Made by a program: the position numbers and the translations under genes
Virus record (IMG/VR): IMGVR_UViG_3300028027_000060
Coordinates: 6,062-70,061 of that record
DNA length: 64,000 nucleotides
Strand: one strand, 5' to 3'
DNA from: a virus
Part shown: piece by piece, positions 1,401-56,540 of the stretch
Layout of the letters: each line of letters begins with the position of its first letter
Numbering within the stretch: position 1 is the stretch's first letter
Notes under the pieces: generated by a model
What the model was told of the DNA's origin: nothing
Seen by the model: the letters and a program-made list of their open reading frames with translations, nothing else
The model's database searches: none

Positions 1401-1496
1401 GGCACACCCCCCTTCTTACCGCCTGAAATAACCCTTGCTCAGAGTTAGATCAAAGACGATTTTCCCCAACTTCAAGCAAGGTGGGTACGAGCCAAT

Positions 1497-1751
1497 TCAA
1501 CTTATCCGCTTACCGCAACGGAATCCAAAGCCATTTGGGTTTACTTTCAGTATGGTGTTAGTTGTCGGGGGTGGGGACAGAGCTAAATTGTCCATCGTTA
1601 GATGGTGGCTTGGATTGATCTCCCCTGCTTGGTCAAGTCCTGTAAAGGCAAGTTTCAAGTGGGGCTTGTGTTGGATGACAATGAATCTTTCATTCTCCGA
1701 CAGAGACTGCTTGGGCGGAACGGGTGAAACACTTTTAAGACCGTGGTACAT
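1497..1751 (-). CDS. possible hypothetical protein downstream of a kissing-loop leader
   Basis: ATG follows the terminator U-tract as in the leader at 53790-53902; the protein is not recognisable. Confidence 0.3.
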   Translation of the reverse strand: MYHGLKSVSPVPPKQSLSENERFIVIQHKPHLKLAFTGLDQAGEINPSHHLTMDNLALSPPPTTNTILKVNPNGFGFRCGKRIS

Positions 1752-1852
1752 AAATAAAAAAAGCCCTCGTTGGAGAGACCGAGGGCAATTTTTATAAGAA
1801 GTATTTTCTTACTCCCCATATTGCGCCGCTCTCCAACACCGCAATACGAGGA
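1752..1852 (-). ncRNA. structured leader/attenuator with kissing-loop terminator (copy 1)
   Basis: Hairpin TATTGCG/CGCAATA with TTGGAGAG in its loop; middle hairpin TAAGAA/TTCTTA; terminator GCCCTCG/CGAGGGC-T7 with CTCTCCAA in its loop. Confidence 0.65.
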
Positions 1853-1857
1853 TGAGA

Positions 1858-1865
1858 CAAATGTA
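1858..1865 (-). promoter_or_regulatory. Bacteroidota -7 promoter element TACATTTG
   Basis: Matches TAnnTTTG; divergent from the element at 1922. Confidence 0.7.
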
Positions 1866-53492: not shown

Positions 53493-53560
53493 CAAATATA
53501 CGAATAAATAACACAGTGTCAAGTTCTTGCTTGCAAACAACACTATTTTGCATAAATTTG
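53493..53560. promoter_or_regulatory. divergent promoters at the structural/replication junction
   Basis: TATATTTG (minus, 53493-53500) and TAAATTTG (plus, 53553-53560), each 4 nt from an ATG. Confidence 0.75.
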
Positions 53561-53564
53561 CACT

Positions 53565-53756
53565 ATGTTTATTGTTTCAATACTAGCCGTTTTATCCTCA
53601 CTTGTTTTTATGATGAAGAACTCCATATATGGCTGTGGAAAAAGGTGTTACAAGACCCGAAAGGAGGCCGAGCAGCTATGCGACGGAGATCAAAAGGCGT
53701 ATATGTGCTGGGAGTGCGAAACGTGGCATATAAAAAATAATGAAGAAAATCCTTGA
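53565..53756 (+). CDS. small membrane-anchored zinc-finger protein
   Basis: N-terminal hydrophobic stretch, CGK.CY and Y.C..C..WH motifs. Confidence 0.6.
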   Translation: MFIVSILAVLSSLVFMMKNSIYGCGKRCYKTRKEAEQLCDGDQKAYMCWECETWHIKNNEENP

Positions 53757-53789
53757 CAACCTCGCGTGGTTGTTTTATGTTTGCCCAAT

Positions 53790-53902
53790 ATTTCACTCCT
53801 CGTTTGCTACGAACCACAGTAAACTAGGGTTGGAAGTTAAGTAAAGTTACTTATCAACCTAAAAGCTCGCAAAGTGGTTCTTGCGAGCTTTTTTATTTTA
53901 CT
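53790..53902 (+). ncRNA. structured leader/attenuator with kissing-loop terminator (copy 2)
   Basis: Promoter TATGTTTG 53776-53783; hairpin GTTTGCT/AGTAAAC with GAACCAC in its loop; terminator AAAAGCTCGCAA/TTGCGAGCTTTT with GTGGTTC in its loop. Confidence 0.7.
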
Positions 53903-54619
53903 ATGCATAATCAATATTCAATCATTCCTGCAAGCGTGTTGCTGAGTAAGGAGTTGTCGTCTACAGAGAAGTTGCTTATAGGCGTTATTTCAAATCTATC
54001 AAACATTAAGGGTTACTGCTTCGCGTCAAACCACTACCTTGGCGAATGCCTTGGCATATCCAAGCACAGTGTGAGGCGAGTTATTGCTGACTTGGAACAA
54101 AAAGGTGTTTTGGGTAGAGTCGTAAAATTAAACAGCAGAAACGAGGTTGAAATTAGATGCCTTACCATAAACCCAGATGCGGACATTTTGAGTAGAACAG
54201 CCGCTCCAGAAATGCCAATATCTGATAATGAAGAGGATGAGTTTTTTAATCATACCCCTGCTCAAAAACCTGCATACCCCCTGCTCAAAAATGAGCATAC
54301 CCCTGCTCAGGAATGCTCACATAATAAAAAGAATAAAGTAAAAGAAGAAAGTAAGTATAATTTCGAGCAGTTTTGGTTGGCTTACGACAAGAAGGTGGAC
54401 AAGAAACAAACTCAAGCTGTATGGGACAAACTTTCTGCTGAGGACCGTACACTTGCTGTAGAAGGCGTGGGTAACCACAAGTCGGGTCGCGAGCGCAAAT
54501 ACTGGAAAGACCCAGTTCGATATCTTCGAGACAGGAGATGGGAGGACGAGTCAACAACAACGAACGTAAAACAAACAAATTATAACTATGACGAAAATGA
54601 CCCAAGGAATAAATGGTAA
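53903..54619 (+). CDS. phage replication initiator (HTH, lambda O-like organisation)
   Basis: LS..EKLL...GYCFASN.YL...L N-terminal HTH; FEQFW.AY.KK..K and P.RYL...RWEDE C-terminal domain. Confidence 0.85.
   Translation: MHNQYSIIPASVLLSKELSSTEKLLIGVISNLSNIKGYCFASNHYLGECLGISKHSVRRVIADLEQKGVLGRVVKLNSRNEVEIRCLTINPDADILSRTAAPEMPISDNEEDEFFNHTPAQKPAYPLLKNEHTPAQECSHNKKNKVKEESKYNFEQFWLAYDKKVDKKQTQAVWDKLSAEDRTLAVEGVGNHKSGRERKYWKDPVRYLRDRRWEDESTTTNVKQTNYNYDENDPRNKW
54251..54360 (+). repeat. iterons (3 x CATACCCC(C)TGCTCA) plus A-rich tract, putative origin
   Basis: Copies at 54251, 54273 and 54296 inside the initiator gene. Confidence 0.75.
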
Positions 54620-56540
54620 GGTATCAATCTACAAAGACTTCAACGACCTGCAAGGACACACAATTAGTGTACTGGGCGCACTTGAACGAATTAGGACTGG
54701 AAAATCAAAGACACTTGTTGAGCAGACGCGGGAAGCCAAAACCAAGAAGGAGGCGGACGAGTTAAAAAAGAAACTCCCTGCGGTTTGCTTTAGTGGTGTT
54801 TTTTCCAAGAGAAAGGACTCAGAGCTGCTTGAGCATTCGGGATACATCGTTTTGGACTTCGATAACGTGGCGGAAATGGCCCAAAAACGAAACGAATTGT
54901 GTTCTGTAAGGTATATTACCGCGGTGTGGGTTTCACCCTCAGGAAAGGGCTTAAAAGCGCTCGTTGAAATTGAGTGGAAAACCAAGCATAAGGAACACTT
55001 TGATTCCCTGATGGAAGAAATGCCCGACATCGACAAGACGGGGCGCAATGTTTCTCGCCTATGCTTTGAGTCATATGATCCTCAAATTTGGTATAACCCA
55101 AACGCTGAGGTGTACACCAAGCTACCCACAAAGAAAGAGGACAGGAGGTTGCCCCAACAGACAACTACCGAAACCGTCAACGACGACGATACAATATTCC
55201 AGAACCTGCTTGCGTGGATGACGTCAAAGGGTGACGCATTCCGTGAGGGGGAGAGGAACCACTTCGTGTTTAAGCTGGCCGCAAGCTGCTGTAGGTTTGG
55301 TATGATGGAGGAGACTTGTTACAGCCTGATGATGATGCACGTTGTTCCCGACGCTAGTTTTAGTCAGAGGGAGTGCAAACAGGCAGTCCGTAGCGCCTAT
55401 CGCGCCAACATGAACCAATGGAACACGGCTGAGTTTACCAAGGACCAACTGGTTACAAAGAGTAACCACAAGGAGATTGACATCGTAATCACAGCAGAAG
55501 ATGCGGAGAATATTGCGGCGAATGACGTGATTTATGCGGAGGAAGTAATTGAACAGGCGTCCGAGATTTATCTGAAGGGATACCAGGCCGCAATGCCCCT
55601 TGGCGTTCCTTTGCTCGACAAGCACTTCAAGAGGGTCAAGGGTGAATTAACAATTGTTTCGGGTATCGGTAACTACGGTAAGTCATCGTTTATGAAGTGG
55701 GAGATGGTATTTCGTATTGTGAAGTTTGGCGAGAAGGTGGCCATCTTTACCCCAGAGGAGTTGCCAGCGGAGCAGTTCTACCATGACCTGGTAGAGATCT
55801 ACTTTGGTAAGGACTGCACACCCAACAACCCCAACCGACCATCCTACGATATGTACATGAAGGTGTACAAGATGATTGGCGAACACATCTTTATGGTTTA
55901 CCCAAAGAATGTAAGCCCTACGCCAGACTATGTGAAGGAGGTGTTCCTTTCCGTGATAATTAAACACGGGGTTGACCGCGTGGTAATCGACCCATTCAAT
56001 CAGATGGCAAACGATTACACCAAGGGTGGGGGACGCAGCGACAAGTACCTTGAGACGTTCCTTTCAGACTGCACAAGGTTTGCACGGAAGAATAACGTGT
56101 ACTTCGACATCGTGGTACACCCACACAAGATGAGAAAGGCCGACGACGGCAACTATCCATGCCCAGAGGTGTTTGACCTGGCAGACGGAGCGATGTGGAA
56201 CAACAAGGCCGACAACATCATCATCTACCACCGTCCGCTTGCCCAGACGGCTCCCGAAAGCCCTGTGTGTGAGTTCCACTCCAAGAAGATCCGACGTCAG
56301 AAGATTGTGGGCATGAAGGGATTCTTTGACTTTGAACTTGTAAGGAGCACTCGCAGGTTCACGTTTAACGGTACAGATTACTTGCAACAGGCAATTGACG
56401 GAAAATACGTGCAGGCTGAGATAGAGCAACCAAAGCCATCAGCGATGAAGCCGAACAAGAGTTGGACGGACTCCAAGGAAGTAAAGGAATGGAACGAGGA
56501 GGTTGGACATCCGAACGGATACAAAGAAGATTGGGAATAA
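54588..56540 (+). CDS. primase-helicase (BT4734/VirE-N-like + PriCT + DnaB-like SF4 helicase)
   Basis: LP.VCFSG.F, LDFD, SPSG.GLK, EGERN, Walker A GIGNYGKS, VIDPFN, HP.K. Confidence 0.85.
   Translation: MTKMTQGINGKVSIYKDFNDLQGHTISVLGALERIRTGKSKTLVEQTREAKTKKEADELKKKLPAVCFSGVFSKRKDSELLEHSGYIVLDFDNVAEMAQKRNELCSVRYITAVWVSPSGKGLKALVEIEWKTKHKEHFDSLMEEMPDIDKTGRNVSRLCFESYDPQIWYNPNAEVYTKLPTKKEDRRLPQQTTTETVNDDDTIFQNLLAWMTSKGDAFREGERNHFVFKLAASCCRFGMMEETCYSLMMMHVVPDASFSQRECKQAVRSAYRANMNQWNTAEFTKDQLVTKSNHKEIDIVITAEDAENIAANDVIYAEEVIEQASEIYLKGYQAAMPLGVPLLDKHFKRVKGELTIVSGIGNYGKSSFMKWEMVFRIVKFGEKVAIFTPEELPAEQFYHDLVEIYFGKDCTPNNPNRPSYDMYMKVYKMIGEHIFMVYPKNVSPTPDYVKEVFLSVIIKHGVDRVVIDPFNQMANDYTKGGGRSDKYLETFLSDCTRFARKNNVYFDIVVHPHKMRKADDGNYPCPEVFDLADGAMWNNKADNIIIYHRPLAQTAPESPVCEFHSKKIRRQKIVGMKGFFDFELVRSTRRFTFNGTDYLQQAIDGKYVQAEIEQPKPSAMKPNKSWTDSKEVKEWNEEVGHPNGYKEDWE

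Follow-up and report, generated by a model that had tools for sequence, protein, structure and literature searches.

A promoter-linked RNA module with covarying complementary loops in its first hairpin and its intrinsic terminator, present as two paralogues in a phage genome

Introduction

In P1/P7, allele differences confer specificity, and attenuators of the pT181 type rely on an opposite-strand counter-transcript together with mutually exclusive leader folds. Packaging RNA (pRNA), which serves the packaging motor, is built around a three-way junction, and its loops form intermolecular pairs of about 4 nucleotides (nt). In this study, we compared with these systems an RNA module that occurs twice in a 64,000-nt stretch of DNA from an uncultured phage, bases 6062–70061 of the 70,061-bp IMG/VR virus record IMGVR_UViG_3300028027_000060, which CheckV rates as complete; this whole stretch is referred to as the window. 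The module is read as a promoter followed by a first hairpin (hairpin 1, with loop L1), a middle hairpin (H2) and an intrinsic terminator, whose loop (L3) is complementary to L1. Its two occurrences are called copy 1 and copy 2.

Passages of PMC4825925 describe that the leader-derived CI RNA of satellite phage P4 (seqB) pairs with seqA and seqC, terminating transcription before the replication genes, and that in Gifsy-1 the terminated short form of IsrK targets, in trans, the read-through form of the same RNA. The IsrK target lies in orf45. The module would resemble P4 CI, P1/P7 c4, N15 CA (Rfam C4) and IsrK in being a short leader-derived RNA with complementarity within the same transcript. 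Copy 2 also resembles P4 CI in position, its terminator lying 8 nt before the ATG of a replication initiator, with termination control predicted. The comparison with P1 c4 and P4 CI drawn in an initial annotation of this DNA is fair as a functional analogy. In contrast to P4 CI and IsrK, however, both partners are loops of one primary transcript of ~100 nt, one of them being the terminator loop; no processing is implied, and there is no third site with the loop motif within ~1 kb downstream of the module. The module further differs from P4 CI, c4 and IsrK by having no Rfam match and by residing in a genome without integrase, the host of which is probably a member of the Bacteroidota and not an enterobacterium.

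With the attenuators of pT181, pIP501 and pAMbeta1, the module shares a terminator leader before a replication initiator, recognition by loop kissing and loops that set orthogonality; as described in passages of PMC3753616, swapped loops yield orthogonal attenuators. Unlike in these systems, no opposite-strand box was found in the leaders and no competing helix in the folds, and the complement is located inside the sense RNA. In the guanidine-IV (mepA) riboswitch, a kissing loop between leader hairpins decides over an intrinsic terminator, which it opposes (passages of PMC11611296). There the loops are conserved for the ligand, whereas in the module they are the most variable part, which makes a ligand pocket unlikely; in addition, the partner is the terminator's own loop and Rfam gives no match. 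For the phi29 family, passages of PMC4201828 report pRNAs whose complementary loops covary among relatives. The module shares with them its phage origin, its approximate size and a pair of mutually complementary, covarying loops. It differs from pRNA in its 7–9-bp helix, its terminator end, its location in the replication/early region and its three hairpins in series. Among the papers listed in literature searches, none describes a kissing-loop terminator element of this kind in phages or Bacteroidetes. We would rate the module as an uncatalogued variant of RNA-controlled attenuation.

Results

Architecture of the two copies

Comparison with relatives establishes the module as a promoter-linked, structured RNA of ~97–107 nt, predicted to consist of hairpin 1, the middle hairpin and an intrinsic terminator. 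Copy 1 is composed of the following elements, all on the minus strand.

1889–1756, minus: copy 1 as a whole, promoter to U-run
1889–1860, minus: promoter-like site TTGACT-18-TACATT, kept in 19/19 distinct family-1 sequences (family 1 is defined below)
1865–1858, minus: Bacteroidota-style box TACATTTG within the promoter
1852–1813, minus: hairpin 1, with a 13-bp lower stem, an invariant G·G mismatch and a 2-bp apical stem
1836–1829, minus: loop L1, UUGGAGAG (DNA TTGGAGAG), 5' partner of the loop-loop helix
1811–1795, minus: middle A/U hairpin H2 (UAAGAA/UUCUUA), read from the sequence and variable in relatives
Between H2 and the terminator, minus: A-rich linker
1786–1763, minus: intrinsic terminator GCCCUCG-GUCUCUCCAA-CGAGGGC with a 10-nt loop
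1777–1770, minus: L3, CUCUCCAA (DNA CTCTCCAA), exact complement of L1, in the terminator loop
1762–1756, minus: U-run U7, at which similarity to relatives ends
After U7, minus: AUUUAUG, with an ATG at 1751

The second copy has the same layout on the plus strand.

53753–53894, plus: copy 2 as a whole, promoter to U-run
53753–53781 (to 53783 including TG), plus: promoter TTGACA-17-TATGTT
53776–53783, plus: box TATGTTTG in the promoter
53792–53834 (core 53797–53829), plus: hairpin 1, the extension being given by RNAalifold
53811–53817, plus: loop L1, GAACCAC
53839–53852, plus: middle hairpin H2 (AAGUAA/UUACUU), read from the sequence and very variable in relatives
53865–53888 (A/U extension 53861–53892), plus: intrinsic terminator GCUCGCAA-AGUGGUUC-UUGCGAGC
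53874–53880, plus: L3, GUGGUUC, complement of L1
53889–53894, plus: U-run U6, 8 nt ahead of the start codon

The box, hairpins, loop pair, terminator and ATG of copy 1 had all been placed on the minus strand by the initial annotation, and we recovered each of them there. Its second copy, set at 53790–53902, was borne out in existence and layout, while the strand had to be corrected to plus. In both copies a GC-rich hairpin is immediately followed by a U-run, as is characteristic of intrinsic terminators; the terminator stem of copy 2 spans 8 bp, or 12 bp including the A/U extension, and is followed by U6. Copy 1 (1745–1860) folds with −46.9 kcal/mol (z score −5.7) and copy 2 with a z score of −4.3, and in either case 0/200 shuffles were as good. 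H2 was missing from the minimum-energy fold of copy 1 and absent from the computed folds of copy 2.

Both promoters carry a palindrome in their spacer. In copy 1 (1866–1884) it is the short CCG..CGG, for which relatives have GGAG..CTCC or CTACA..TGTAG, and in copy 2 (53756–53773) it is ACAACC-N6-GGTTGT, for which L073 has ACAAAC/GTTTGT, the changes being matched in both cases. These palindromes may constitute an operator for a DNA-binding protein.

Conservation of the loop-loop helix

Relatives of copy 1 (family 1) were collected by two routes. Among loci beside MazG-like genes, 7/45 carry the RNA, and a 22-nt promoter-proximal pattern led to 24 viral stretches which, together with the window, give 25 instances and 19 distinct sequences. 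For copy 2 (family 2), a search with the HTH_36 protein encoded downstream yielded 59 loci and 33 distinct leaders, which were aligned.

A contiguous L1–L3 helix of 7–9 bp can be formed in 19/19 distinct family-1 sequences, 16 of them being entirely Watson–Crick paired and 3 containing one U·G. The loops fall into nine alleles (L1/L3): that of the window, UUGGAGAG/CUCUCCAA, and UCUGGCUGG/CCAGCCAGA, UCUGGUAG/CUACCAGA, UUUGGCGG/CCGCCAGA, UCUGGUAC/GUACCAGA, UCUGGCCGG/CCGGCCAGA, UGUGAGAG/CUCUCACA, UCUGACGG/CCGUCAGA and CUGGCAC/GUGCCAG. A tenth, UCUGGUACG/CGUACCAGA, was obtained from L358. Family 2 displays three alleles, GAACCAC/GUGGUUC, GAGCAAC/GUUGCUC and GUAAGGC/GCCUUAC. The initial annotation had regarded the complementary loop pairs of the two copies as covariation, and with 10 + 3 allele pairs and 7–9 bp in every distinct sequence examined this was substantiated. 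Alleles are not to be equated with independent events: family 1 requires at least 8–9 changes, family 2 perhaps only two or three.

In the MAFFT alignment of family 1, loop insertions and deletions were placed inconsistently, and only five universally aligned kissing pairs entered the pair counting. Over these five pairs and the two stems, 99.4% of the pair cells are standard, compared to 94.3% after shuffling, and 0/500 shuffles were as good; sliding the partners against each other as a control gave 39–48% standard pairs. Hairpin 1 contributes 15 pairs with 99.3% of cells paired and 4 pairs changed on both sides, and the terminator stem 7 pairs, 100% paired. In family 2, 97.4% of the cells are paired versus 89.5% in shuffles (0/500 as good), and RNAalifold independently recovered hairpin 1 and the terminator. 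Here the kissing helix is 98.3% paired, the misses amounting to 4 cells in 4/7 pairs, which is consistent with a misalignment of L057 by one column, as direct reading of L057 gives a 7-bp helix. Two double compensatory changes are carried by 14 family-2 sequences.

The family-1 pair cells contain 31 G·U and 3 non-standard pairs. Since G·U pairs correspond to C·A mismatches on the other strand, the fold is therefore assigned to an RNA transcribed from the strand that carries promoter and U-run. Duplexes of cognate loops were calculated at −9.4 to −18.3 kcal/mol (mean −12.7), compared to a mean of −4.6 kcal/mol for non-cognate combinations; a few near-cognate family-1 pairs cross-react through G·U, down to −16.1 kcal/mol. 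Between copy 1 and copy 2 of the window, the loops do not cross-pair (+0.8 and −0.2 kcal/mol).

Within family 1, sequences differ most from one another in the variable half of the helix, where pairwise differences average 0.57 per column (3' half of L1, 0.574; 5' half of L3, 0.571). The corresponding averages are 0.41 for linkers and H2, 0.14 for the stem of hairpin 1 and 0.04 for that of the terminator. The G·G mismatch below L1 never varies in this family. In family 2, the kissing helix shows no such rate excess (0.145). Pairing that persists through changing alleles demonstrates that the predicted L1–L3 helix is maintained by selection while its sequence changes quickly.

Both copies belong to one RNA family

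To see whether the arrangement exceeds chance, we used a model-free descriptor that combines a terminator (perfect stem of at least 6 bp, loop of 6–14 nt, at least 5 T's) with a hairpin 8–110 nt upstream, in whose loop at least 7 nt are perfectly complementary to the loop of the terminator. From the 24 terminator-like hairpins of the 70-kb genome, it picks exactly copy 1 and copy 2, with 0 matches in 20 shuffles. In 1.66 Mb of fetched loci, which contain 389 terminator-like hairpins, all 80 matches belong to the two families, and unrelated MazG-bearing phages and chance genome loci gave no match. A scan for the terminator arms of copy 1 added 107 new loci (1.0 Mb, 321 terminator-like hairpins), mostly from unrelated phages; the 5 descriptor matches among them are all further members of family 1.

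A covariance model built from family-1 sequences alone, whose E-value calibration is rough, scored copy 1 with 108.5 bits in the 64-kb window and ranked copy 2 second, over its full length and on the plus strand, with 18.7 bits (E ~0.008). Because the family-1 model ranks it second, copy 2 and copy 1 are diverged paralogues and more than look-alikes, as the initial annotation had expected when it assigned both to one RNA family. The comparisons thus establish two diverged paralogues of the predicted module per phage genome; family 1 is represented by one copy each in five near-complete relatives.

With Rfam 15, 0 matches at gathering scores were obtained for the whole window, which agrees with the initial annotation, where the element could not be given a family name; up to E = 10 around both copies, generic terminator-bearing small RNAs and leaders appeared far below their thresholds, and neither C4 nor IsrK nor mepA was among them. 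When both copies and the initial 6 kb were compared by blastn with 50,697 cultured-phage records, no match was obtained. A metagenome scan gave 28 distinct matches, 14 of which are genuine family-2 leaders, with zero new alleles. A scan of genome contigs with a 16-nt promoter pattern, which was too short, gave 120 rows of chance matches, of which 0 passed the descriptor.

Copy 2 precedes the replication genes

Downstream of copy 2, the following genes are encoded.

53903–54619, plus: first gated gene, a 238-amino-acid (aa) HTH_36 protein resembling phage replication-initiation/DnaD-like proteins
54588–56540, plus: primase of 650 aa with BT4734-like_N and PriCT_1 domains

A gene for a DnaA_C-domain protein comes after the primase gene. 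The HTH_36 protein aligns with cultured-phage proteins annotated as replication initiation or DnaD over 89–98% of its length at 26–29% identity. In 33/33 distinct family-2 leaders the ATG follows 3–11 nt past the U-run, and the leader is retained, its columns averaging 77% identity, though the first gene diverges to 37–46% identity. We looked for a promoter motif between terminator and ATG of copy 2 and found none, nor is there room for one. The replication operon can therefore be expressed only by reading through the terminator, making copy 2 an attenuator. As expected of an operon leader, copy 2 is flanked by the promoter and the first start codon, shares their strand and has a conserved linkage to the operon, which copy 1 does not. 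From its position, copy 2 is thus shown to be a true attenuating 5' leader of the predicted replication operon.

Searching the opposite strand for TAnnTTTG, which we take to be the promoter consensus of Bacteroidota, we found a box inside the leader in 0/40 leaders and downstream in 13/40 contexts, and by these counts a cis-antisense counter-transcript was rejected as a general feature. Likewise, a scan for sigma-70-type promoters detected no opposite-strand promoter within the leader of copy 2.

Three further observations concern the surroundings of copy 2. At 53991–53998 on the minus strand, 88 nt inside the replication-initiator gene, a box TAGATTTG points back toward the leader; an opposite-strand box at this position occurs in 10/14 distinct contexts with this gene type (window included) and is absent from other gene types. 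It could drive a lineage-specific counter-transcript. On the other side, an open reading frame of 63 aa, rich in cysteine (C-x3-C ... C-x2-C) and without Pfam match, extends over 53565–53756 on the plus strand, up to the promoter of copy 2. In nearly all family-2 loci the 3' end of this reading frame is conserved; its product might be a small zinc-ribbon regulator. Back-to-back promoters are located at 53493–53560, with TTGACA-16-TATATT on the minus strand (11/12 matches) and TAAATTTG on the plus strand. They probably form a divergent control region that separates the structural arm, read leftward, from the early arm, read rightward.

Copy 1 is transcribed away from a conserved promoter cassette

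Similarity of copy 1 to its relatives spans the region from the start codon of the divergent gene to the U-run and stops there. Beyond the U-run, the 23 distinct instances of RNA plus flank have three different continuations: 19 share a gene-less conserved flank, 3 including the window have the ATTTATG flank and 1 has a third flank. The flank found in 19/23 (loci L106–L129) is ~200 nt long, non-coding and more conserved than the RNA itself, and it is absent from the window. Its start is rich in C, and it contains a GC hairpin (GCCCC..GGGGC) as well as a long polypyrimidine tract; it may serve as an origin or have another regulatory role. Its place is taken in the window, L108 and L355 by the segment corresponding to window 1401–1755, which is ~95% identical to L108 over the first 155 nt, is not coding and gave no fold signal for either of its strands (z scores +0.9 and +0.1). 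A convergent NinB-like gene follows no more than 400 nt past the terminator in 14/23 instances.

The initial annotation had regarded copy 1 as a leader as well. This did not hold: the 84-aa open reading frame downstream (1751–1497) was rejected as a gene, as it has no Pfam match and, compared with L108, codon-position differences of 11/9/5 together with frame-breaking insertions and deletions, and 19/23 relatives have the gene-less flank in its place. As there is no conserved downstream gene and similarity ends at the U-run, copy 1 is predicted to be a small-RNA gene of its own, located at the boundary of an operon. Its putative product is a small RNA in its own right, read divergently from a conserved promoter, and not a leader.

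On the other side of the copy-1 promoter, a second box completes a two-way promoter cassette.

1922–1936, plus: divergent TATCTTTG box, 4 nt ahead of the ATG of the MazG-like gene

In the conserved form of this cassette, the RNA promoter is combined with a TAnnTTTG box 4–20 nt before varying first genes, which encode MazG-like proteins, several open reading frames of 70–90 aa and proteins of 278 and 284 aa. In the window, TAnnTTTG boxes lie 4 nt before the ATG both at 1922–1936 (MazG-like gene) and at 53553–53567 (63-aa open reading frame), which suggests leaderless or near-leaderless mRNAs.

Phage and host

The window contains 57 TAnnTTTG boxes, compared to 41.8 ± 7.1 expected, and 3/100 shuffles reach 57. 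These boxes, starts without Shine–Dalgarno sequence and the BT4734-like primase domain point to a host that is probably a member of the Bacteroidota. A tyrosine or serine recombinase or integrase was searched for in the genome and none was found.

Discussion

We infer that L1–L3 pairing would tune termination, upward or downward. The wider statement, that the contact is part of how the terminator works, either in cis or via the terminated RNA in trans, is in our judgement evenly poised. In cis, the contact would lock or pre-organise the terminator hairpin, and the spacers required for such a helix may be represented by the 2–3 nucleotides left unpaired 5' of L3 and by the weak, G·G-bearing apical stem below L1. 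In trans, the terminated RNA, which would carry both L1 and L3, would dock onto nascent leaders of the same allele and act as its own antisense RNA. Read-through into the replication genes would thereby be under a feedback that depends on dose and is specific to the allele, without any counter-transcript; the scarcity of opposite-strand boxes would fit a complement that is built into the sense RNA. The narrower proposal, that the terminated leader RNA is a trans regulator of nascent transcripts from its own promoter, with a rapidly evolving address of 7–9 nt written twice (L1 and L3), is put forward tentatively and we consider it somewhat doubtful. It would imply two orthogonal channels per phage, one for the replication operon and one for the boundary of a nin-like operon, and co-infecting related phages would be insulated or would interfere with each other according to allele. 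As to targets of the loops in trans, their 7–8-nt motifs occur in the genome at about chance level, and the 9–10-nt versions only in the two copies.

Several points weigh against a role of the contact in termination. Transcription start and 3' end are predicted, and so are read-through and the efficiency of termination. Among the sequencing runs listed as containing the sequence there is no RNA run, the DNA runs being subsurface and freshwater metagenomes available as contigs. Covariation cannot separate pairing in cis from pairing in trans, nor can it show an effect on termination. Neither minimum-energy nor centroid folds contain an alternative antiterminator fold, so that no obvious switch is apparent. 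The three alleles of family 2 may reflect two or three events. Since copy 1 has no conserved downstream gene, its product must be a short RNA, which favours a small RNA as the primary function, and the lack of an integrase makes a prophage-immunity role as in P4 unlikely. Finally, a helix of 8–9 bp that uses all of L1 requires the weak apical stem of hairpin 1 to open, which is assumed.

In a different explanation, the module would be a stand-alone structured small RNA, compact and nuclease-resistant, L1–L3 being an internal tertiary lock and the task of the RNA, on a protein or some other target, having nothing to do with termination. The missing downstream gene of copy 1, the module boundary exactly at the U-run in front of three different flanks, the single family-1 copy in each of five near-complete relatives, the strong conserved promoters of both copies with a 5' end directly in hairpin 1 and the missing alternative fold would all agree with it; for copy 2, it has to assume that the replication genes rely on constitutive leak past a strong terminator. 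Internal tertiary loop contacts, however, comprise 2–6 bp in pRNA and in the riboswitches for purines and lysine, and the GC-rich Watson–Crick helix of 7–9 bp is longer than is usual for them. It is also odd for a purely structural contact that the helix changes faster than the unpaired linkers, and the spacing of copy 2 to its start codon, fixed within 3–11 nt in 33/33 leaders, argues for operon coupling. We consider this explanation unlikely. Distinctly improbable is a self-assembling RNA, in which L1 would pair with L3 of another molecule, hand in hand, to form dimers or rings as a scaffold, with the two paralogues giving two orthogonal assemblies. Two covarying complementary loops in one RNA are the defining pattern of pRNA self-association as laid out in passages of PMC4201828, the paralogues within the genome are indeed orthogonal, and a coaxial kissing stack of ~30 bp would, by our own geometric estimate, strain the short linker in cis. 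On the other hand, the window has no Rfam match at gathering scores and hence none to any pRNA model of that release, the module has no three-way junction, and the terminator ends it ahead of replication genes and not of packaging genes.

If L1 and L3 were the arms of a DNA-level inverted repeat, as in a recombinase or inversion site, an origin or a cruciform, the hairpins would be incidental. L1/L3 do form an inverted repeat of 8–9 bp, 52–60 bp apart, inverted repeats also evolve in concert, and a highly conserved non-coding stretch adjoins copy 1 in most relatives. The repeat nevertheless sits exactly in two hairpin loops, with a promoter before and a U-run after them, and G·U pairs are tolerated on the promoter strand only (31 versus 3 non-standard), including the U·G in three kissing helices. 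The genome contains no tyrosine or serine recombinase, and the segment between the repeats would be very short for inversion. An inverton or recombinase site was rejected for the strand-specific G·U pairs and the absence of a recombinase, and we regard a DNA-level origin of the repeat as extremely improbable.

If the loop contact controls termination, the module would be a compact, RNA-only regulator of replication genes that works without a counter-transcript and without a ligand. In that case, nature would also offer at least 13 orthogonal address pairs that share one scaffold, a set of the kind that synthetic biology has had to engineer from pT181. Should the terminated RNA in addition address its own nascent transcripts, it would serve as an RNA-only sensor of copy number or timing and provide heteroimmunity-like specificity in lytic Bacteroidota-type phages. 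For the uncultured freshwater and subsurface Bacteroidota-type phages, whose gene regulation is little known, the module would, if this is true, add a regulatory principle.

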